From NCBI GenBank assembly GCA_000004695.1, contig CM000151.3, positions 8,416,001-8,480,000 on the forward strand: 64,000 nucleotides of DNA. The letters are read 5' to 3'. The translations under genes were made by a program, and so were the position numbers. This DNA is from Dictyostelium discoideum. Taxonomy: Eukaryota. The notes beneath the pieces were generated by a model, which saw only the letters and a program-made list of their open reading frames with translations, was not told where the DNA came from and made no database searches. Below, in pieces: positions 7,409-64,000 of this stretch (position 1 is the first letter of the stretch; every line of letters begins with the position of its first letter).

Positions 7409-10036
7409 CCACCACAACAACCATATGGACAACAACCACAACAACAACAACAATGGAATAGTAATCCAGTACCAGGTTTACAAAATTTATCACTTGGACC
7501 AAATAACCAACAACCACAACAACAATATGGACAACCACAACAACAACAATATGGGCAACCACCATTCGTTGGACAACAACAACAACAACAACAACAACCA
7601 TGGCAACCACAACAACCACAACAACAACCAAATCAACAACAAATTGAGGATAATAGAATTAATATGTCAAAAGTGCCAAGCCCAACAGCAATTTTAGAAC
7701 AATTTAATAATTATATTTATAAGACCAATTCAGATGTGTCACCACCACCATCAACAGTTCAACAATTAGTGATTGATCAACAAAATGCATCACCAAATTT
7801 CATTCGTTCAACATTGTATACCATTCCAGAGAATGAGGATACTCTTAATCTAATTCATATTCCATTTGCAATTCATGTTCAACCATTGGCATACAATGGT
7901 ATTTCAGGTGAGGTACCAGTGATTCGTACACCAGGTGGACCAATTCAATGTAAACGTTGTCACAGTTATATCAATCCATTCAATCCATTCACCAATGGTG
8001 GTAAATATTTTACTTGTCGTTTCTGTGAATTTGAAAATCAAGTACCACAAGAATACTTTAGTGCCACGCTTCCAAATGGTCAACGTACCGATTACGAACA
8101 AAGACCTGAACTTCAAAGGGGTTCCTACGATTTCATAAAGACTGAAGCAAATGCAGCTCAAGTACCGGGTTATGTTTTCGTGATTGAAATTTCACAAGTT
8201 ACCATCAATAGTGGTATCGTCGAGAATGTAATCAATGCCATCAGAAGAATTCTCAATGAAAGATATGATAGTATACCAGCCAAAGTTGGTATCATCACCT
8301 ACGATACAGAGGTTCACTTTTGGTCATTCAAACCAACCTATGCCTATCCACAAATGAAAGTATTGACAGCTGACAATGTTTTCGTACCAGTTAATGACGG
8401 TTTCCTCGTGGATTATCGTGAGTCTAAACAATTGATGGATTTCTTTTTCGATAATTTCAAAACCTTCTTCAAACGTCCACAACCATCGAATCAACCATTT
8501 GCATTTGGTGCCGCTGTTCAAGCCGCTGCAATGTCATTGGAAAAGATTGGTGGTAGAGTTTTCACATTCAATACTACCCTTCCAAAAGGTTCACCTGGTG
8601 CTATCGCTAAACGTGTCGAAAAATCAATTCAACCATCACCAAACGGTTCACAATTCTATAAGACGGTAGCAACTGAATGTGTTGCAAAGAATGTTTCAGT
8701 GGATCTCTTTGTAATTCCAACAGAGATTTGTGATGTACCATCCTATGCTCAATTGGCAACCGCTACTGGTGGTCATATCAATCTCTACAATAATTACTCG
8801 GCCGAAGTTCACTCTGAATTACTCACAAGTGATATCATTCATTATGTTACAATGGAATTTGGTTTCAACGCAACCTCTAAAGTTAGATCCTCTAGAGGTA
8901 TCACTGTTTCTGCTCATTATGGTAATATCACTGAAGAGAATGGTCTCATTCAAATGGCTGGCGTGACCTCTGATAAATCAATTACATCAGTATTAAAATA
9001 TGATGATAAATTAAAACCAAAATCAAAAGCTTATATTCAATTTGCAATGATGTAAGTTTTTATTAAATTATTTAAATAATAATTATTATATATATATAAA
9101 ATATATTATAATATTTATAATTAACTATTTTATTTTATTTTATTTAGATATACAAATATTAAAGGTGAAACTAGAATTAGAATTCATAATTTAAGATTAT
9201 CAGTTGATTCAGTTTTAACAAATTTATTTAAAGATTCAGATTTAGATTCAATTACAACCTATTTTGCAAGAGTAGCAAGTAAAGAGGTATTGACAACTAC
9301 ACCAACTACAGTTCGTTCAAATACAGTTGATAAAGGTGTTGATTTATTAGCATCCTATAGAAAGAATTGTGCATCCGATAAGAAGGCAACTCAATTGATC
9401 TTACCAGAGGGTATTAAATTGATGCCAATCTATATATTGTCAATGATGAAAACACCATGTTTCCGTCTTTCACCAGATATCAGTCAAGATTTGCGTTATT
9501 TCTATTTGAATTTATACACTTCATCAGCACCTTCAAGAATTATACCATTGATTTATCCACGTACCTATCCAATTCATAATTTATTACCTGGCGATGGTTA
9601 TAAACATCCAAACTATGATCACATTGTATTACCATCATTCATTAGATTATCGGCCGATCAAATCTCTCAAAATGGTATTTACATTCATGAAGATGGTAGA
9701 CAAATTATGGTTTGGATTCAACAATTTGCTGCTACCAATTATCTTCGTGATCTTTTCGGTATCGAGAGTACCTTTGGTTATACCAATAGTAAATTATCAC
9801 AACTCTATCATTCTTTAAATGGTCAAAACGAATATCATCAACGTATTGAAGCTATCATCGCTTCAATCACTCAACTTCGTGGTTACAAAGATAGACCTGT
9901 CATTTTCGTCGTTCAAGGTGATCCTGTTGATGCTCATCTTAGATTACAATTCCATGAAGACAAAGGTGTTGATTCTGTCTCTTACATTGATTTCCTTTGT
10001 CAAATTCATAAACAAATTCAAAATAAATTATCGTAA
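6539..10036 (+). CDS. COPII coat component Sec24. Model join(6539..9051,9148..10036).
   Basis: A Gln/Pro-rich N-terminus with GYPQQ repeats is followed by the Sec23/24 zinc finger CKRCHSYINPFNPF...FTCRFCEFENQVP and a trunk domain. Donor GTAAGT at 9052 and acceptor TTTAG at 9146-9147 restore the frame into the 9290..10036 ORF (helical and gelsolin-like region). The intron is 96 nt and AT-rich. Confidence 0.85.
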
Positions 10037-51443: not shown

Positions 51444-52920
51444 ATGATATCAATCGAAGAAAATATTAAATACAAAGAAGGAACACTTTCAGTTTTGTCA
51501 TCTGATGGTAAATCATGGAAAAAGAGACATTGTGTATTTAAAAATAGAATTTTATTTATTTTTGAAAATAAAAATGTAAAAATAGTTTTTTTTTATATAT
51601 TCTATTTTTATTTTTTCGATTTTTTTCAAACATAAATTTTTTTTTTTTTCATCCCAAAATCTTTTTATTATTTTTTTTTTTTTCGATCCCAAAATCTTAC
51701 TAACCTTTTTTTTTTTTTTTATTATTTTTTAAAAATCAAATTCAACATCATCAAATTATCAAATTTTATATTTTATACCATTAGCAAGATGTGGATTAAT
51801 ATCAACAGCTATTAGTGGAGGACCAAATGGTAAATCATTTTGTTTCAAGTTATCACATGAAATTGATGAATCAATTCTTTATTGGTTATCTGATGAGAAT
51901 GAAGAATCAATGAAAGAATGGGTAAGAGTATTACAATTATCATGTGCAATTCAAAAGGAACCAGAGAAAGTTCAAGTTAAAGGTAGATCAAAATCTGTAG
52001 CATTTAAGCCAGGAGCAATAGAGATTGCAGGTATAACATCAGATCATAAAGGTTGGTTAAAAAAGTATACATCATCAGGTACATTTAGAAAAACACTTCA
52101 ATGGAAAAAGAGATGGTTCGTACTAAAGGATTTAGTACTCTATTATTATGAAGGACCAGAATCGAATCTAAAAGGAAAGATCTCCATTCCAAATTGGAGT
52201 GTAGAAATTGAAAAAACCATACCCATTGGTTATTGTTTTACATTATCTCATCCAGGTTATACACCAATTACCCTTCAAGCAGAGACAGAAGATGATCGTA
52301 AGAAATGGGTTCAAAAAATTAAAGATAACAATCGTAGCCTTACAAAATCTTTAGCAACTCCAAATGAAATCACAAGACTTTGTGATTGGTTTAAACAATT
52401 GACACAATTGGACATTAAAGAACCATTGGAGTTAGTTTGTAATGCTTCATTTGTTTCAAATATTTTGGAAAAAGTTGGTTTACATGTTGATTTACCTGAC
52501 AGAGATCATAAATCTCAAAGAAGTACTGATAACGATTGGTCTTTGTTAGCTTTTGATAATATAATTAAAGCTTGTCAATTTAAAGGTATTAAATTTGATC
52601 AAACTATTTTACCAGAAGATTTTATAATTGGTGATCCTGTTGTTTTAACTTTTATTATTTCAATAATGAATCATTTTAATCCAAACAGTAAACCATCTTT
52701 AATTATAACTTCAACACCATCAATAAATACAACAAATACAACAAATACAACAAATACAACAAATACAACAAATACAACAAATACAACAACAACAACCACT
52801 ACAACAACAACCAATACAAAAGAGCAACCATCAAATTCATCTGAAACATCACCACAAACAACACCAAGATCAATGGTTTCTGATATATCATCAGTTGCGA
52901 CTGATAGCGTTTCTGATAGT

Positions 52921-53006
<86 letters not shown>

Positions 53007-53463
53007 AATTTCAACAAGTAAAAGTTTAAGTTTTGATAGTAATAAAAAATCAAAAGTATCAACTCCAACAACTACAACAACTGATAAAAAAGATAAAAAA
53101 GATAAAGATACAAAATCAACACCAACTACGCCAAATACAACTTCACCAACTACAATTTCAATAAATCCAACTAATGCACCAACTCCATTGGAACCAAAAC
53201 CAATTGAATCAAAACCAATTGAAACTAAACCAACCGAAACTAAGCCAATTGAAGATATTAAAACAACCAAAACAACATCAACTCCAGTTAAACCACTTAA
53301 TATTCCTCCTCAAAGAACTTCAGATGATGTGGACATAGATATTATGAATTCATTAGATTTTGGTTTTGATGATGCTCCAACACCACCAACAATAACAACA
53401 ACAACTAAAACTTCAGTGGAAGTTGATTTAATTAATGAAATTATTGCAGAAACAGATGATAAC

Positions 53464-53530
<67 letters not shown>

Positions 53531-54296
53531 GCGGTACCGATAATAATAATAATAATAATAGTAAAGTTACAACACCAATTTCTACACCAACTTCAACACC
53601 AGTTAAATCAACATCACCAAGATTTGTTTCACCATATAGAAATTTAAAAAGAGTTGAAACTCATGATGTTTTAGGTGAATTTGATAAAATATTTTCATCA
53701 CTTTCAAAGACAGTTAAAAATTGTGAATTATGTAATGAACCAATCGCAAGTGATCCAATTGAAATACCTTGTGGTAAAGCTTGGCATAGACATCATTTTC
53801 AATGTTGTACTTGTTCAAAATCAATTCTTTGTATTGATGAAGAATTACCATATGTCGTTAGAGATGATAATATTTATTGTAAAGAAGATCATGATAAATT
53901 ATTTAAAGATGGTAATTGTTCAGAATGTAATAAATCATTAATGGTAATGTATTTTTTTTTTTTTTTTTTTTTATAATAATAAATAATTTTAATAAAATAG
54001 TTTTCATTTACTAACTATTTTATTTTTATTTTTAATTAAAAAAAAAATAGATTACATTTGCATATAAAGGAAATTTATTATGTAGAGAACATTATTTAAA
54101 TCATGTTGGTGATATGATTTGCCAAAGTTGTGAAGCACCAATTGGTAATAAATCTTATCAAACCTTTGAAGGTAAAAAATGGCATTTAGAACACTTTAAA
54201 TGTTCATATTGCAGTAAAAAATTACCAGATCCATTAGTTGCTAAATTTAAAAATTCAAAACCTTATTGCGGCACTTGTTCTGTAAAATTATTTTAA
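51444..54296 (+). CDS. PH-PH-LIM domain protein. Model join(51444..51575,~51785..53943,54051..54296), with the first junction uncertain.
   Basis: Exon 1 is PH strands b1-b2 ([34 protein letters not shown]). The large exon continues the same PH domain ([52 protein letters not shown]), then a second PH domain ([36 protein letters not shown]...[10 protein letters not shown]), a Thr/Asn/Pro-rich linker and LIM zinc fingers (CELCNEPI...[18 protein letters not shown]|[23 protein letters not shown]...CGTCSVKLF). The last intron, 53944..54050, is clean (GTAATG...AATAG, phase 0). For the first intron the only available acceptors (51783-51784 or 51787-51788) do not match the phase of the GTAAAA donors at 51576 and 51585. 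Confidence 0.65.
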
Positions 54297-57831: not shown

Positions 57832-57955
57832 AAAAGATTTAAAAAAAAAATTTCCCCCTATTTTTAATATTGTTTTTTTAAAAGATTTAAAAAAAAAAAC
57901 TCCCCTATTTTTAATATTATTTTGTTAAAAGATTTAAAAAAAAAACTTTTTTACT
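57832..57955. repeat. 47-bp tandem repeat, 2.6 copies.
   Basis: aaaagatttaaaaaaaaaa[t]ttcccc[c]tatttttaatatt[g/a]ttttgtt is repeated head-to-tail at 57832, 57880 and 57927. Confidence 0.8.
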
Positions 57956-57984
57956 TTTTTTATTTTATTATTAATATTTTGAAA

Positions 57985-58125
57985 CCAAAAAAATAAAAAA
58001 TTAATTTAAAAATAATAAATTTTTGATTTTTTGGTTTAGTTCTATTAACGTCATACTTATAATTATCTGTTCGTATGTTTATTTTAAAGATTCGAATCTT
58101 TAATTCTTGCTATCCTTTTAACATC
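57985..58125 (+). repeat. Copy 0 of a ~170-bp module that also starts each large repeat unit (58860..59000 and 61660..61800).
   Basis: ttgattttttggtttagttctattaacgtcatacttataattatctgttcgtatgtttattttaaagattcgaatctttaattcttgctatcc aligns with ctgattttcggtttagtttcataacgaccttactttaatattatgtatgtttattttaagatacgagtctttctctatttctatccc at 58895 and with the copy at 61690. Identity is about 75%. Confidence 0.7.
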
Positions 58126-58140
58126 TTTCACTTAAAAATA

Positions 58141-58712
58141 AATACATTGGACCTTTCTGTGAATAATTGAATTAATTCTGAAAAAAAAAAGTTATTTTGA
58201 AAAAGATCGAGTTATCCCGGAAAAGATCAATCTTTTCGCTAAAAATTTTTCATTGGCCATATTATTTTTTTTTTTTAATTTTTTTCATTTATTCACAATT
58301 AAAATAAAAAATATAAAAATAAATAAATAAAATAAATAGTATGATTGACAAAAAAAATCAAAAATACCCCGGTAGGATTTATTTTTTATATGTAGTTTTT
58401 TTTTTTTGAAGTTCCTTTTTTTTTTTTGAAGTTCATTTTTTTTTATATTTTCTTTATTTCTCTATAAATACAACCAAATTTAATTCTACGATAGGTCTTA
58501 ACAAATATTGTTTAATATTATTTAAAATTTTTGTTTTAAATAATGTGTTTTATTAAAAAAAAAAAAAAACATGTGAAAAGTGAAAAATTTTTCAAAAAAA
58601 AATAAACTTTTTTCGAAATAACTGAATTTATTCCGGGATAACTCGATCTTTTTTAAAATATGCTGAGTTAATTATAATTAATTCAATTATCCACTGATAG
58701 GTCCATTATCAT
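58141..58712. mobile_element. About 570-bp element bounded by ~80-bp imperfect terminal inverted repeats (MITE/foldback-like, non-coding).
   Basis: The left arm 58141..58220 (cattggaccttt ctgtgaataattgaattaatt ... attttgaaaaagatcgagttatcccgg) is the reverse complement of the right arm 58633..58712 (ccgggataactcgatcttttttaaaat...aattaattcaattatccac...aggtccattatc). The inner 22 bp (aaaaagatcgagttatcccgg) is perfect, and overall arm identity is about 80%. The interior of about 410 bp is AT-rich with no ORF. It sits exactly between module copy 0 and the start of repeat unit A. Confidence 0.6.
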
Positions 58713-59526
58713 TTTTGTTAGAGACTCAAAACTAATTTAATTTTAAAGTTAGTATGAGCCCCAACAACTTTACAAATTTGCGCGTCTCCATGTAAAAATA
58801 TTTCATTTAATTTTAATTTTTATTTTTTAATTTTTTATTTTTTAAGTCGAAAAATAAAAAATTAAATTAAATTAAAATTTAAAAATAATAAAAATTCTGA
58901 TTTTCGGTTTAGTTTCATAACGACCTTACTTTAATATTATGTATGTTTATTTTAAGATACGAGTCTTTCTCTATTTCTATCCCTAACAATATAAATAATA
59001 ACGATTGATGAAGATTGATGAAGATTGATGAAGATTGATGAAGATTGATGAAGATTGATGTAGATTGATATAGGATTAGATAGATTGGAATAGTGCCAAT
59101 GACTTTTATTTTAACATAAGATGGAAATATTAAATAAATAATTAGATACAATCTTTATATAATTGCCTATACAATGACACCTCATGATGAAGAAGTCGAC
59201 TCTTCAGATTAGAGGAATAACAGTAGTATTTAAAACAAAATAAAAATGCATTACAATGGCCCTTCTGTTTGCAAGATTAACGCTGTACTGCTTAGGCGGT
59301 ACAACGACACTTCCTACTCACATTGTAAACATGCATCTTTTATAAAGTAATATAAAATAAGATTGTATCAATTAATTTAATAATATTCTAAATATAAACA
59401 ATGACACCTCAAACAGAGGAATAACTGTGTTGTTATATAAAAACAATGACACCTCAAACAGAGGAATAACTGTTATATAAAAGCAATGACACCTCAAACA
59501 GAGGAATAACGGTATTGTAATAATAT

Positions 59527-59748
59527 TAAGACACCACAATATATAATATTAGTGGAATAACAGTTAAACAAAGACACCACAATATAAATTATTAGTGGAA
59601 TAACAATTAAACAAAGACACCACAGTATAAATTATTAGTGGAATAACAGTTAAACAAAGACACCACAATATAAATTATTAGTGGAATAACAGTTAAACAA
59701 AGACACCACAGTATAAATTATTAGTGGAATAACAGTTATATAGATGTA
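59527..59748 (+). repeat. 43-bp tandem minisatellite (about 5 copies) inside repeat unit A, preceded by 3 copies of a related 33-bp repeat (59398..59512).
   Basis: caaagacaccaca[a/g]tataaattattagtggaataacagttaaa repeated head-to-tail. The related unit is caatgacacctcaaacagaggaataactgt. Unit B has a single copy at 62189..62231. Confidence 0.85.
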
Positions 59749-60008
59749 TTATTAATAAAAATAATTTAAGATAATATTTATTATCAATCAAATAAAGACA
59801 CCACAATAAAAATATATTAGTGGGATAACAGTTATAATATATTAATAATAATATCAATTATTTAATTTTAAAAATTAAAATAAATAAATTAAATAAATTA
59901 AATTAATTTAATTAAATAAATTAAATAAATTAAATTAAATATATTAAATTAAATTAAATAAATTAAATTATATAATTTAAAATTTAAAATAAATTGTTGG
60001 TGAAAGTA

Positions 60009-61195
60009 ATGACATCAACTACTACTCTTTCAAAGATAGCCATCCGTAAAGCCAAAGTGTCTTCCACCGCCAAATGTGCCGCTGAAGTGACCTCTGCCTC
60101 CGATGAAGCTATTTCTGTCCAAGCCAAACCAAAAAAGACCCTTCATCCCACTGAAGACGATGATTAACTTTATACTACCGAAAGCACGGACCTATCCGAG
60201 GCTGAAGTCAGAGAGAGAGCCTAAGAATTCAAAGACAACTCCATTGAAGCTAAAACCATTGATGCTTTTAAAAAATGATACCACTGCCTTCATCTTCATG
60301 AATCTCTTTACCATCTACTTCCCCCTGTCTCCTCCCCCCAACCCAACCTTGATGACCATTATGGACAATGTACTACATCAAATGAATTATTCCATTTGCT
60401 TCAACCTGACCAATATGAATCAGTGAAGAACAACGATAATTTGAAGGTGTAACTTTGAGGAAGCTTATCCACCGTAACTTTAGACCCAAGACTTTGGTTC
60501 CCGTCAAAACTGACTACGAAGCTGCTAAAATTAAAGTGGTCTAAGCCATTAGCCATTGTAACAACCACTCAGCCTAATATGTTAAAAAAAACATCGAAGC
60601 AAATATGAGTTACAACAATGTAATTAATCCGATGTATCTCATCCATGGTACTGCTGATGTTCAATTAGATTATCTAAGATCAATTTTAGATAATAATATC
60701 CTTGCTTTGTTAAAGATGGTTATACCAGACTGGTTACAAACTGATGTTGCAATCAAGCTCAACCCTCAAACCGATATCACCGAGTGTCGTGAAGCTATCA
60801 CCGAGTTGGTTCTTTTCAATACTGATAAGTTTTCTAGAAGAAGATCTTCCGATTCGGCATCGAATACTGATGAGAAGTTTCCAATGAAAAATAATCATGC
60901 TGTTCCAAATCATAACTCTCAAAGCAGGAATCACTTAGAGCTGAAATATAACCAAAGGTAAAAGATAATAAAATGGTAAATATCAACAAGATAAGAAACA
61001 GTTACATTGTTTATCGTCATAGCAAAGGCTATTGTCTCAATTGTAGTCGTTCAAATTACTCTACATCTTTATGTAATGCCGATACTGTCAAGGTCAAAGT
61101 CAATCCATCAAGTCCATAAGCCAAAAAGCAACAATGACTCGATGAAGGTGATGAGTACAAGTCTAAGATTTTAAATAAAAATTATAAAATTTCAC
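60009..61195 (+). pseudogene. Degenerate copy (copy A) of the repeat-encoded ORF, with multiple in-frame stops and frameshifts.
   Basis: It aligns to the unit B ORF (MTSTTTLSKIAIRKAKVSSTAKCAAEVTSASDEAISVQAKPKKTLHPTEDDD* versus MSSTTTPSKKAIRKAKVSSTAKRAAEVTTASDDAITVQVKSKKTLRPTEVDDE...). There is a TAA at 60164, further stops and frame changes so that three ORF-track pieces (60103.., 60605..) lie in different frames, and C->T-biased divergence at about 80% identity. The 3' part extends about 230 nt beyond the copy B ORF end. Confidence 0.7.
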
Positions 61196-61199
61196 AATA

Positions 61200-61510
61200 T
61201 CATCACCCCGAGAAAATGGATGGTAAAGAGATTCATGAAGATGAGAGCAGTGGCAGCATTTTTTTAAAGCATCAATGGTTTTAGCTTCAATGGAGTTGTC
61301 TTTGACTTCTTTGGCTCTTTCTACCTGACTTCGAGTTTGGATATGTCAGTTCTTACAGTTGTATAAATTTCTTCATCGTCTCCAATGGGATGAAGAGTCT
61401 TTTTTGATTTCACTTGAACTTGGGTAGCATCATCCGAGGCGAATGCACTTCAGCAGCACATTTGGTGGTGGAAGACACTTTGGCTTTACGAATGGCTTTT
61501 TTTGAAAGAG
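61200..61510 (-). repeat. Inverted partial copy (5' ~300 nt) of the repeat-encoded ORF, head-to-head with repeat unit B.
   Basis: The reverse complement of 61380..61510 reads ...aaaaaaagccattcgtaaagccaaagtgtcttccaccaccaaatgtgctgctgaagtgcattcgcctcggatgatgctacccaagttcaagtgaaatcaaaaaagactcttcatccc... It matches the N-terminal coding sequence of copies A and B. It is degenerate (stops) and breaks off after about 100 codons. Confidence 0.65.
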
Positions 61511-61519
61511 TAGTTGTTC

Positions 61520-63430
61520 TAGACTCAAAACTAAATTAATTTAAAGTTAGTATGAGCTCAACAACGTAACAAATTCGCGCATCTCCATGTAAAAATATTT
61601 CATTTAATTTTAATTTTTTATTTTTTCATTTGAAAAATAAAAAATTAAATTAAATAAAATAAAATTAAATTAAAATTTAAAAAAATAATAAAAATTCTGA
61701 TTTTCGGTTTAGTTTTCATAACGCCCTTACTTTTAATTATCTCTTTTATATATGTTTACTTTTATGATATTAGTCTTTCACTCTTTCTATCCTTCATATT
61801 AAAAAACATTACTTTAAAGATTGGACAGTTTGATTAAAGATTGAACAAATGTGACAATGGATTGAAGATTAGTGTGAGTGAATTTTACACTTTTTTTTCT
61901 AATTTTAACATAAAACAAATACATTAAAACAAATAATTAGATACAATCCTTATATTTCGTATACAATGGCACCTCATGATGAAGAAGTCGACTCTTCAGA
62001 TTAGAGGAATAACAGTAGTATTTAAACAAAATAAAAATGCATTACAATGGCCCTTCAGTTTGCAAGATTAACGCTGTACTGCTTAGGCGGTACAACGACA
62101 CTTCTTACTCACATTATAAACATGCATCTTTTATAAAGTAATATAAAATAAGATTGTATCAATTAATTTAATAATAATGCTCAAATACAAAGACACCACA
62201 ATATAAATTATTAGTGGAATAACAGTTAACATATATTAATACTTATATTAATTATTTAATTAAAAATTAAATTAAATTAAATTAAATAAATTAAATTAAA
62301 TTATAAAATTAAATTATAAAAATTAAATTATAAAATTAAATTATATTTAATAAATTTTATATATAATTGTTGGTGAAAGTCATGTCATCAACTACTACTC
62401 CTTCAAAGAAAGCCATCCGTAAAGCCAAAGTGTCTTCCACCGCCAAACGTGCCGCTGAAGTGACAACCGCCTCCGATGATGCTATTACTGTTCAAGTAAA
62501 ATCAAAAAAGACTCTTCGTCCCACTGAAGTCGATGATGAAATTTATTCAACTGAAAGCACTGATGTATCCGACGTCGAAGTCAGAGAGAAAGTGCCAAAG
62601 AAATCAAAGACCAATTCCATTGAAGCTAAAACCATTGACGCTTTAAAAAATGCTGCCACTGCTGTCATCTTCATGAATCTCTTTACCATCCACTGCTCCC
62701 AGAATGGTGTTGAACCAACCTTGAAGACCATTATGGACAATGGTGCTGCATCAAATGAATTATTTCAATTGCTTCAACCTACCCACAATGAATCAGTTAA
62801 GAACATTGAAGAAGGTGGAGCATTGAAGAAGCTAATACACCGTAACTTTATATCCAAGACTTTGGTTCCATTCAAAACTGACTACGAAGCTGCCAACACT
62901 AAAGTAGTAGAAGCTATTAACCATCGTAACTGCTACTCAGCCCAAGATGTTATAAAAAACATCGAAGCCATTATGAGTTACCACAATGTAATTAATCCGG
63001 TGTATCTAATCCATGGTACTGCTGAAGTTCAATTAGAGTATCTAAGATCAATTTTAGATAATAATATCATTGCTTTGTTAAAGATGGTCGTACCAGACTG
63101 GTTACAAACTGATTAATCAAACTCAACACTCAAACCGATATCACCGAGTGTCGTGAAGCCTTCACCGAGTTGGTTCTTAACAATGCTGATAAGTTCTCGA
63201 GAAGAAGACCTTCCGATTCCGCATCGAATACTGATGAGAAGTTTCCATTAAAAAAGAATCATGCTACTCCAAATCATAACTCTAATAACAGGAATTCCTT
63301 TGATGCACAAGCTGATAAGATTAGAGCTGCAATATTACCCGAAATAAGAAAAGACTCTAAGGTAGACCTCAAAAAGATAAGAAGCAGCACAGCGGCGAAA
63401 ATCAACACTTTAAAGCACCTTTAAATCCAA
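61520..63430 (+). repeat. Repeat unit B, the compact version of unit A: upstream module 61520..62381 plus the ORF.
   Basis: Collinear with unit A apart from the minisatellite copy numbers. See the unit A evidence. Confidence 0.75.
62382..63424 (+). CDS. Repeat-element-encoded ORF (copy B, best preserved). 245 codons to a TAA at 63117, then about 100 further codons in frame after the stop (63120..63424).
   Basis: ATG at 62382 (MSSTTTPSKKAIRKAKVSSTAKRAAEV...HGTAEVQLEYLRSILDNNIIALLKMVVPDWLQTD*). Relative to copy A (..LQTDVAIKLNPQTDITECREAITELV..), copy B has an indel converting GATGTTGCAATCAAGCTCAACCCTC to GATTAATCAAACTCAACACTC, which creates the TAA. Downstream ...KLNTQTDITECREAFTELVLNNADKFSRRRPSDSASNTDEKFPLKKNHATPNHNSNNRNSF... 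continues the homologous frame (ORF 63170..63424). Basic N-terminus. I recognise no enzymatic motifs. It may be a nucleic-acid-binding ORF1-like protein of a retroelement. Family not identified. Confidence 0.5.
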
Positions 63431-63543
63431 GTACTCTTTTTAATATATATTAATAAGTATACTTAATAAGTAATACTTAATAAGCACACTTAATAAGTAT
63501 TGTTGTAGGGAATTTTTTTTGAAATTTCGCTTTCTAAACGGCA

Positions 63544-63595
63544 GTGAATTTTTACACTAAAATACGCTGTTTATGCATGGTGTAAAAATTCACTA
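63544..63595. other. Perfect 15-bp inverted repeat (hairpin, 22-nt loop) at the 3' boundary of repeat unit B.
   Basis: agtgaatttttacac (63544-63558), then taaaatacgctgtttatgcatg, then gtgtaaaaattcact (63581-63595). Just upstream is a 12-bp tandem repeat (acttaataag[t/c]a x4, 63452..63508). Confidence 0.7.
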
Positions 63596-63836
63596 AATTT
63601 TTTTTTTTTATAATTAAATTAAAAAACAATTTATTTAATCAAAAAAATTAAAAACCAATTTTATTCAGTTATTTGCTTGTTTATTTATTTTTTTATAACA
63701 AAAAAATTTAGTTTGCGCCATTTTTTTTTTTTTTTTTTTTTTTCAAATTATTTTTTTCAATTTTTTTTTTTATCGATTGTTTTCATTTTTGGGGAATAAA
63801 ATAAAATTGTTCGATAAAAAAAAAATTGAAAAAAAT

Positions 63837-63883
<47 letters not shown>

Positions 63884-64000
63884 GGTTTATATTTTAATTA
63901 TGGTATTCATATAATTATTTTTAGTATTTATATTATTTATAATTATAAACTCGAGTTAATAGAATTATTATTATTATTATTATTATTTAAATGCGGGTCA

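Follow-up and report, generated by a model that had tools for sequence, protein, structure and literature searches.

A small nest of dead Skipper-1 fragments in Dictyostelium discoideum very probably holds a published small-RNA fold-back

The region described here very likely consists of three dead Skipper-1 retrotransposon fragments gathered in a small nest, in which one pair of arms constitutes the fold-back of Hinas et al. 2007. No functional Gag can be made from any of the three pieces (copy A, fragment C, and copy B), and none of them contains pol. They are the sole Skipper material in the window, i.e. the whole 64-kb stretch of D. discoideum AX4 DNA that was analysed, which is otherwise rich in long ORFs. 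We take this window to belong to chromosome 2, an assignment made via the gene model DDB_G0277781; lying among long ORFs, the fragments are probably situated on a chromosome arm and not in the centromeric cluster. Copies A and B are, as the original prediction had it, two direct copies, neither of which is functional; they are 85.7% identical over gag, and they are homologous from about 1.3 kb before each ATG onward, taking in LTR and 5' UTR. Skipper-1 and its fragmented state have both been published before, and the AX4 gene set already lists copy B. Since the pieces are known Skipper-1 gag debris, one of them annotated, and the fold-back has very probably been published, the finding is ordinary and already described.

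The repeated ORF encodes the Gag of Skipper-1, a Ty3/gypsy chromovirus that was reportedly described earlier by Leng et al. in 1998; its nature as the gag of an LTR retrotransposon had gone unrecognized in the original prediction. All 68 protein matches to a repaired copy B came from D. discoideum, and the top ones were 382-aa proteins named Gag in UniRef (96-97% identity, E about 1e-203). Canonical Skipper-1 Gag comprises 382 aa with a CX2CX4HX4C knuckle (CLNCGKSNHSTSTC) at its C-terminus, and in the copy alignment the consensus accordingly does not end at the stop of copy B. Full-length Skipper-1 measures ~7.0 kb and is bounded by direct 390-bp LTRs with TG..CA termini, which in the reference element (L003) are 100% identical to each other. 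Its 5' UTR holds 4.0 copies of a 43-nt repeat, and the ORF downstream of gag in full-length loci matches RVT_1, RNase H (RT_RNaseH), Integrase_H2C2, rve, and SH3_Tf2-1, while a C-terminal Chromo match in the pol of full-length relatives is weak (residues 1259-1303; 19.2 bits, below the 25.1 cut-off). According to previous work, Skipper-1 Gag carries a CX2CX4HX4C motif and the element a polypyrimidine tract in place of the PBS (PMC5006619), and its about 60 copies are mostly fragmented, with only two intact (PMC5006619, PMC5633606).

The layout of copies A, C, and B was obtained by blastn against a full-length reference Skipper element (Table 1). Copy A ends at element nt 2352 and copy B at nt 2149, so that pol is missing from the window, which makes these copies fragments of the family rather than complete members, and the LTRs present are 5' LTRs only. 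The earlier view that neither copy is full-length is right for the element as a whole; the gag of copy A, however, is complete, though dead. Gag itself found no family in Pfam and, among PDB sequences, only a marginal nucleocapsid-knuckle match (2bl6, E=1.2, residues 350-379). AlphaFold2 run on a 14-sequence Gag alignment gave a mean pLDDT of 37.7 and thus an unusable model, in which a helical core at residues 78-276 gives no more than a hint of a capsid-like fold.

Table 1. Coordinates of the Skipper-1 fragments, their parts, and the fold-back within the window
Feature	Position	Strand	Description
Copy A, whole	58715-61207	+	5' LTR, 5' UTR, and complete but dead gag
Copy A 5' LTR, degenerate	58715-59109	+	starts TGTTAGAGACTC; blastn to reference from Skipper nt 1; termini compared
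(GATTGATGAA)x6.7 expansion in copy A LTR	59003-59069		tandem-repeat finding
Copy A 5' UTR	59110-60008	+	blastn, repeat analysis
40-nt unit in copy A 5' UTR	59392-59511		2.8 copies; related to the 43-nt repeat
Skipper 43-nt repeat in copy A 5' UTR	59528-59738		4.9 copies
Copy A gag pseudogene	60009-61137	+	complete but dead; through natural stop position
Fold-back 5' arm, within copy A gag	60017-60317	+	pairs with 61217-61514
Fold-back loop	60318-61216		899 nt of dead gag
Pyrimidine-only patch in copy A	60320-60346	+	about 28 nt, CTTCCCCCTGTCTCCTCCCCCCAACCC; replaces canonical sequence
Copy A gag-pol spacer	61138-61207	+	ends at Skipper nt 2352, some 20 nt short of the pol ORF
Filler at A/C junction	61208-61216		9 nt, CCGAGAAAA
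Fragment C, inverted gag 5' piece	61217-61514	-	gag nt about 13-311; Skipper nt 1444->1142; 3' arm
Copy B, whole	61515-63387	+	5' LTR, 5' UTR, and cut gag
Copy B 5' LTR	61515-61889	+	TGTT...TTACA; abuts fragment C; 92-95% identity to reference LTRs
Copy B 5' UTR	61890-62381	+	43-nt repeat present once only
Polypyrimidine run in place of PBS, copy B	61890-61899		CTTTTTTTTC; right after LTR
Copy B gag	62382-63387	+	nt 1-1016 of 1149; 97.9% nucleotide identity to intact copies
Predicted "intron" of DDB_G0277781	62988-63148	+	161 nt, GT..AG, 34% GC; within a conserved coding part of gag
Terminus of another mobile element	63388-63500	-	cuts copy B gag; 98% identical, inverted, to insertion end in locus L002

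Fragment C, at the nucleotide level, is 84.7% identical to copy A and 87-88% identical to canonical gag and copy B. The minimum free energy fold of 60017-61516 pairs both arms through 268 inter-arm bp, with uninterrupted helices of 40, 35, and 29 bp in a stem that is only ~85% complementary, and its free energy of -392 kcal/mol compares with -139 +/- 6 when the arms are shuffled. Among the 292 C-arm 21-mers, 12 match canonical gag perfectly and 67 do so with one mismatch. Copy A and fragment C have two CpG transitions and one 1-nt deletion in common, which weakly suggests that C may be a duplicate of copy A's own 5' gag, and the pyrimidine patch of copy A starts no more than 3 nt from the point at which the homology to fragment C stops. 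The indel and CpG changes common to both, along with the patch right at the stem/loop junction, could point to a template-switch inverted duplication. Fragment C had been overlooked in the original prediction, and with it the role of copy A as an arm of a long hairpin.

Hinas et al. 2007 (PMC2175303) put forward a chromosome 2 Skipper fold-back as the origin of every Skipper small RNA that had been cloned (Fig. 4A), namely a partial element with a ~320 bp stem and a ~900 nt loop, to which eight cloned 21-nt RNAs as well as ESTs are assigned, and some of whose small RNAs also match other Skipper copies. They also report that the Skipper small RNA goes up, not down, in drnA- and rrpC- strains; the small-RNA sequences are deposited as GenBank EU113320-EU115992 and under GEO GPL5734. 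Judged by chromosome, element, and geometry, the A/C fold-back is very probably this same hairpin: its stem of ~300 bp and loop of 899 nt are close to the published values, it lies on the same chromosome, it is likewise a partial Skipper fragment, and some of its 21-mers match other Skipper copies.

It is improbable, by contrast, that A, B, and C are inert debris, with the fold-back untranscribed or the published hairpin being a different Skipper fragment of chromosome 2. Such a reading could draw on Rfam, which holds no known RNA family matching 58000-64000, and on the frequent nesting of Skipper fragments in one another (PMC5633606), through which inverted juxtapositions might occur by chance. 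However, the near coincidence of loop, stem, and chromosome with the published fold-back speaks against it, as does the isolation of the pieces among the many long ORFs of the window, which fits a position along a chromosome arm and not inside a centromeric cluster.

Compared with six other copies, the gag of copy A contains 5 in-frame TAA and 6 frameshifting indels (-2, -1, +1, -1, -1, -22), bearing out the several stops and frameshifts originally noticed, and two +3 insertions besides. It reaches further 3' than copy B, as had been stated, although by 206 rather than about 230 nt, and the CX2C...C motif seen in this extension (YRHSKGYCLNCSRSNYSTSLC) is indeed the CX2CX4HX4C zinc knuckle of Gag, located at about 61027-61071 (CLNCSRSNYSTSLC), in which the H has mutated to Y and the motif is thus broken. 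Nucleotide identity to canonical gag amounts to 86.5% (13-14% divergence), with differences falling evenly on the three codon positions (55/43/61). Such a pattern is what neutral decay predicts, unlike that of intact lineages, where third positions are enriched for differences.

That copy A was instead inactivated by directed C->T hypermutation, either RIP-like or via deamination of methylated cytosines, is very unlikely, and as the main process in copy A RIP-like decay was rejected on substitution counts, GC content, and the lack of enrichment in the hairpin arm. G/C->A/T transitions are, admittedly, its most frequent class per site (22/342 G/C sites vs 11/573 A/T sites for the reverse), and in a post hoc split they favour CpA/CpG (15/131 vs 2/131, Fisher p=0.0017), a preference not shown by four other copies, which we regard as a weak hint. 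On the other hand, the C->T-biased divergence that had been claimed finds little backing in the 76 A-private substitutions, as 43 are transversions and 33 transitions; C>T and G>A together account for just 22, with no strand asymmetry between them (9 and 13, respectively). GC content is 37.3% in copy A and 38.3% in the canonical copies, the hairpin arm is not enriched (5/100 vs 17/242 G/C sites), and inactivation proceeded mostly through indels. The example originally quoted for this bias is the pyrimidine patch, in which copy A gained rather than lost C's.

The gag of copy B, which lacks 6 nt in frame at about 62810, is disabled solely by a 4-nt deletion and the cut at its 3' end. The former, private to copy B and situated at 63113/63114 (GATGTTGCAATC -> GAT----TAATC), creates the TAA at 63114-63116, while all other copies keep the undeleted sequence. 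The indel-made stop was hence correctly predicted, except that 244 and not 245 codons are open from the ATG at 62382; likewise, the homologous frame past the stop, estimated at about 100 codons, runs for 90 codons to 63387 and then for a further 12 into foreign DNA. Gag is cut before the zinc knuckle, which is therefore absent from copy B. The mobile element terminus at this cut is shared with a 5.56-kb insertion in locus L002 that splits a Skipper pol, and whose 816-aa ORF has no Pfam match and no entry in the cluster table.

Copy B coincides exactly with the gene model DDB_G0277781 (exons 62382-62987 and 63149-63424), and splicing at these coordinates reproduces the annotated protein P0009 exactly. 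The predicted intron takes out conserved gag codons (VINPVYLIHGTAEVQLEYL...) and, by its sequence, is an annotation artefact hopping over the frameshift; copy B thus carries a gene annotation only because the gene predictor spliced around the lesion. It is very unlikely, too, that copy B represents a genuine host gene, i.e. a Gag that was domesticated or truncated and is made from the annotated splice form or as a 244-aa N-terminal fragment, serving for instance as a restriction factor. In support of such a gene, the ATG of copy B is intact and lies downstream of the copy's own conserved LTR, its 244-codon frame is only 2% diverged from active copies, and the model is present in the AX4 annotation. 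The intron, however, does nothing but bring the frame back, an unrelated mobile element supplies with its terminus both the stop and the last 12 codons, the zinc knuckle is gone, and the codon differences from canonical gag (9 synonymous, 9 nonsynonymous) leave no sign of purifying selection. Furthermore, exact-protein look-ups in other assemblies found no product identical to P0009 or to the 244-aa ORF of copy B. Such look-ups were likewise negative for P0001 and the neighbouring 688-aa ORF, and a homology search with the latter returned matches from other species only. From the original alternative of a recently inactivated or a truncated functional copy, the recent inactivation stands, in keeping with 97.9% identity and a single deletion plus the 3' cut, whereas the foreign tail, the 9:9 codon differences, and an intron within conserved coding sequence argue against function. 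DDB_G0277781 is best handled as a retrotransposon pseudogene with an artefact intron and its last 12 codons taken from the neighbouring mobile element.

Finally, DIRS-1, with fragment C as its right terminal repeat, has virtually no chance of accounting for the ~300-nt inverted repeat and for the few database proteins fusing Gag to the tyrosine-recombinase domain PF00589 (which are gene-prediction chimeras in transposon clusters), as the LTRs of the full-length relatives are direct and 390 bp long, and their pol encodes a DDE integrase (rve) together with a chromodomain, in contrast to the inverted terminal repeats and tyrosine recombinase of DIRS-1.

For the nest of three Skipper-1 fragments we propose the following history. 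Copy A would be an old insertion or lineage, cut down to its 5' LTR, 5' UTR, and a neutrally decayed gag, and broken just before pol; joined to its broken end would be fragment C, a copy of the initial ~300 nt of gag in inverted orientation. Copy B would be a young Skipper-1 copy whose LTR abuts C and whose gag was disabled by the private 4-nt deletion and severed at nt 1016, where another mobile element ends. Any remaining activity is plausibly at the RNA level only: transcription might start in the degenerate LTR of copy A, pass through A and C, and end in the LTR of copy B, and the resulting transcript would fold into the ~300-bp stem with its 899-nt loop, from which Dicer-like enzymes could cut 21-nt small RNAs, some of them matching active Skipper gag. 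An extended version, in which a template-switch inverted duplication of copy A's gag 5' end was retained as a trans-acting siRNA generator restraining active Skipper-1, with the LTR of copy B as terminator, is tentative and in our judgement rather unlikely. The fold-back can now be spelled out in sequence, with its arms, its loop, and flanking LTRs as possible promoter and terminator, which makes a deletion of the locus straightforward in order to test both the source of the Skipper small RNAs and the restraint of Skipper-1.

With Skipper-1 (Spaller et al. 2016, PMC5006619) the fragments share the Gag sequence, the 390-bp TG..CA LTR, the post-LTR polypyrimidine tract, and the 43-nt 5' UTR repeats; of the CX2CX4HX4C knuckle, copy A has a degenerate form with the H->Y change, and copy B is cut before it. 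They differ in that copies A and B lack pol and the 3' LTR, and probably in their position outside the centromeric cluster, where most Skipper-1 copies sit. The relatives Skipper-2 and DGLT-A differ by inserting ~15-100 bp from tRNA genes, none of which was found by ARAGORN in the 64-kb window. Gag-derived restriction factors are represented by Ty1 p22 and mouse Fv1, and the 244-aa Gag fragment of copy B may act as one, as a rarer alternative to the siRNA generator. Like these two, copy B is a truncated Gag ORF with a promoter-bearing LTR; unlike them, it has a foreign tail and no sign of selection or expression, and it keeps the N-terminal part of Gag, whereas p22 is the C-terminal part. Another parallel is offered by endogenous hpRNA and inverted-repeat siRNA loci, such as the A. 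thaliana fold-back loci cited by Hinas et al.: the A/C locus, a candidate by its sequence and predicted fold, would equally be an inverted transposon duplication yielding a long imperfect dsRNA stem, and a stem of this kind can supply Dicer with substrate with no need for an RNA-dependent RNA polymerase.

By sequence, the element in the window is the LTR retrotransposon Skipper-1, matching the published description of a Ty3/gypsy chromovirus with a CX2CX4HX4C Gag, a polypyrimidine run in place of the primer-binding site, and ~60 mostly fragmented copies, only 2 of them intact (PMC5006619; PMC5633606). Once its frameshift is repaired, the protein of the downstream copy, B, matches exclusively Dictyostelium discoideum; the best matches are 382-aa proteins with the UniRef name 'Gag', e.g. 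DDB_G0281533 (96-97% identity), and a Pfam search with the Gag protein retrieved no model. At a relative's locus in a recent D. discoideum assembly, an ORF of ~1400 aa starts 80 nt after gag and contains RVT_1, RNase H, Integrase_H2C2, rve and SH3_Tf2-1 domains together with a weak C-terminal Chromo match. This ~7.0 kb element is bounded by two 390-bp direct repeats that are identical to each other and run from TG to CA; a polypurine tract precedes the 3' repeat. DIRS-1, our first guess from the inverted repeat, was ruled out by the direct LTRs and rve-bearing pol of the relatives, and the absence of tRNA genes from the 64-kb window speaks against Skipper-2 and DGLT-A, relatives that target such genes.

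The original prediction of two direct, coding-like copies of ~1.1 kb, A and B, proved real, correctly placed and largely right, but left an inverted third copy unmentioned. In a pairwise alignment of A and B, homology begins ~1.3 kb upstream of each ATG, so that the duplicated unit exceeds the ORF, and when the window was searched in full by blastn with the reference element, Skipper sequence was confined to about 58715-63387, in three pieces. The third, fragment C, emerged from a three-way alignment: it lies between A and B and repeats the ORF's first ~300 nt in inverted orientation. The start of B's LTR, TGTTCTAGACTC, lies immediately at the end of C.

Pieces of the Skipper nest and neighbouring features (window positions)
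Feature	Position	Strand	Content
688-aa ORF	51910-53976		nearest long ORF upstream of the nest
LTR fragment	57947-58176		degenerate; 68.7% identity to LTR nt 116-353, E=6e-25
Inverted repeat	~58185-58235 and ~58615-58650		GATCGAGTTATCCCGG ... CCGGGATAACTCGATC, enclosing ~400 nt of AT-rich DNA
A	58715-61207	+	element nt 1-2352: LTR, 5' UTR, whole gag, 70 nt of gag-pol spacer
C	about 61217-61514	-	element nt 1444->1142 = gag nt ~13-311
B	61515-63387	+	element nt 1-2149: LTR, 5' UTR, gag to nt 1016/1149
Terminus of another element	63388-63500		98% identity, inverted orientation, to the end of an insertion in another Skipper locus

GC content across the window is about 18-34% per 2-kb bin. ORFs of 200 aa or more number 24 in the window, which suggests that the nest sits among genes and not in a centromeric cluster. 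The 688-aa ORF is homologous to PH/LIM-domain proteins of dictyostelids termed 'prespore-specific', with 48% identity to D. purpureum. The short inverted repeat situated between A's LTR and the older LTR fragment may represent a small terminal-inverted-repeat element. A's LTR also carries a microsatellite expansion (59003-59069; (GATTGATGAA)x6.7) that is not in the canonical LTR, and the 5' UTR holds a 43-nt repeat of varying copy number, whose unit, AAGACACCACAATATAAATTATTAGTGGAATAACAGTTAAACA, includes a small inverted repeat, CCAC..GTGG, with GGAATAACAGT after it: 4.0 copies in the canonical element (9560-9730 of the full-length reference locus), 1 in B (62190-62232), and 4.9 in A, where a related unit of 40 nt is present a further 2.8 times (59392-59738).

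We aligned A, B and C with six other copies, three from canonical loci, which are identical to one another, and three from divergent lineages of other isolates (L004-L006). The several stops and frameshifts ascribed to A were borne out, as translation shows all three frames broken, its gag carrying 5 in-frame TAA, 6 frameshifting indels (-2, -1, +1, -1, -1, -22) and two +3 insertions. Differences from canonical gag are spread evenly over A's codon positions (55/43/61), whereas intact lineages show third-position enrichment (e.g. 39/36/86): A's gag has decayed neutrally. Since A has many states in common with L004-L006, part of the 14% distance between A and B is lineage difference and not decay. 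The CX2C...C motif noticed in A, YRHSKGYCLNCSRSNYSTSLC, is indeed the Gag zinc knuckle, with a histidine-to-tyrosine change relative to the canonical YRQSKGYCLNCGKSNHSTSTC.

The proposed C->T-biased divergence of A is weakly supported. Polarised at sites where four other lineages agree, A's private substitutions number 76 (33 transitions, 43 transversions), with C>T (9) and G>A (13) as the highest per-site class; yet these amount to 22/76, GC content has barely shifted (37.3% vs 38.3% in the canonical copy), and a concentration of C>T/G>A in A's hairpin arm was not found. In a genome of 22% GC an overall GC->AT pressure is to be expected, and the per-site excess agrees with it. In a post hoc split by context, A-private C->T/G->A changes occurred at 15/131 CpA/CpG vs 2/131 CpC/CpT sites (Fisher p=0.0017), a preference absent from the four other copies and a weak hint that A's gag may bear a trace of context-dependent cytosine deamination. 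The example originally offered for the C->T bias was a misreading: it is a 28-nt pyrimidine-only patch (60320-60346; CTTCCCCCTGTCTCCTCCCCCCAACCC), unique in the window, where A gained pyrimidines, mostly C.

Copy B is 97.9% identical to canonical gag, with one in-frame 6-nt deletion. Its predicted stop is present (TAA 63114-63116), closing 244 rather than 245 codons when translated from the ATG at 62382, and was rightly attributed to an indel, a private 4-nt deletion converting GATGTTGCAATC to GAT----TAATC. Every other copy in the paralog alignment is undeleted here, so the consensus does not end at this position. The frame does continue past the stop, resuming in another phase to 63424, but its last 12 codons, reading TAAKINTLKHL*, are foreign: from 63388 the sequence matches the end of an insertion, 5.56 kb long, that interrupts a Skipper pol at locus L002 of another assembly, and thus B was cut by a different mobile element. 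The insertion itself (L002, 12671-18232) has inverted termini and contains (TATACTTAATAAG)n arrays; a Pfam search with its 816-aa ORF gave no hit.

B is already annotated, wrongly, as a gene, DDB_G0277781 of strain AX4, on a contig that we take to be chromosome 2. Its protein is reproduced exactly by joining 62382-62987 and 63149-63424, and the 'intron' in between (62988-63148; 161 nt, GT..AG, 34% GC) is conserved gag coding sequence. This intron only bridges the frameshift from the 4-nt deletion, and the gene model is an artefact. As protein-coding DNA, the nest most likely does nothing.

The 5' end of A's gag (60017-60317) and C (61217-61514) form inverted repeats 899 nt apart, the arms of a ~300 bp stem. 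In the predicted minimum-free-energy fold of 60017-61516 both arms are paired over their whole length; for the arms alone, 268 base pairs are predicted, including 11 G:U pairs; helices of 40, 35 and 29 bp run without interruption, and the free energy is -392 kcal/mol vs -139 +/- 6 for shuffled arms.

As to its origin, C is 87-88% identical to the canonical copy and B vs 84.7% to A. Two transitions of CpG type, one 1-nt deletion and one insertion, placed at the same homopolymer junction in both, are common to A and C; the number of such states in common is 0-1 for unrelated pairs and 6-7 for true sisters. Furthermore, the pyrimidine patch, which may itself derive from a template switch, starts <=3 nt from the end of C's homology, i.e. 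at the stem/loop junction. Together, the common states and the patch weakly suggest that a template switch duplicated A's own 5' gag in inverted orientation to give C, with ~8% decay per copy thereafter.

Hinas et al. 2007 proposed that a Skipper hairpin on chromosome 2 gives rise to small RNAs, which are developmentally up-regulated and increased in drnA- and rrpC- strains (PMC2175303), and the idea was repeated in a 2017 review (PMC5633606). Because chromosome, element and geometry all match, the A/C fold-back is very probably this hairpin. Transcription would start in A's LTR or upstream and terminate within B's LTR, and the stem would be processed by Dicer-like enzymes. The C arm comprises 292 21-mers, 12 with perfect and 67 with one-mismatch antisense complementarity to canonical gag; judged from this complementarity, they could possibly target Skipper gag in trans.

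Element, fragmented state, gene model and hairpin hypothesis were already known, and what lies here is unremarkable debris of a transposon, at a locus that is very probably in the literature already; the fold-back may be a generator of siRNA maintained by selection, or it may be accidental. Compared with complete Skipper-1, A, B and C are by sequence fragments lacking pol and the 3' LTR, in which the zinc knuckle characteristic of the element is broken or missing.
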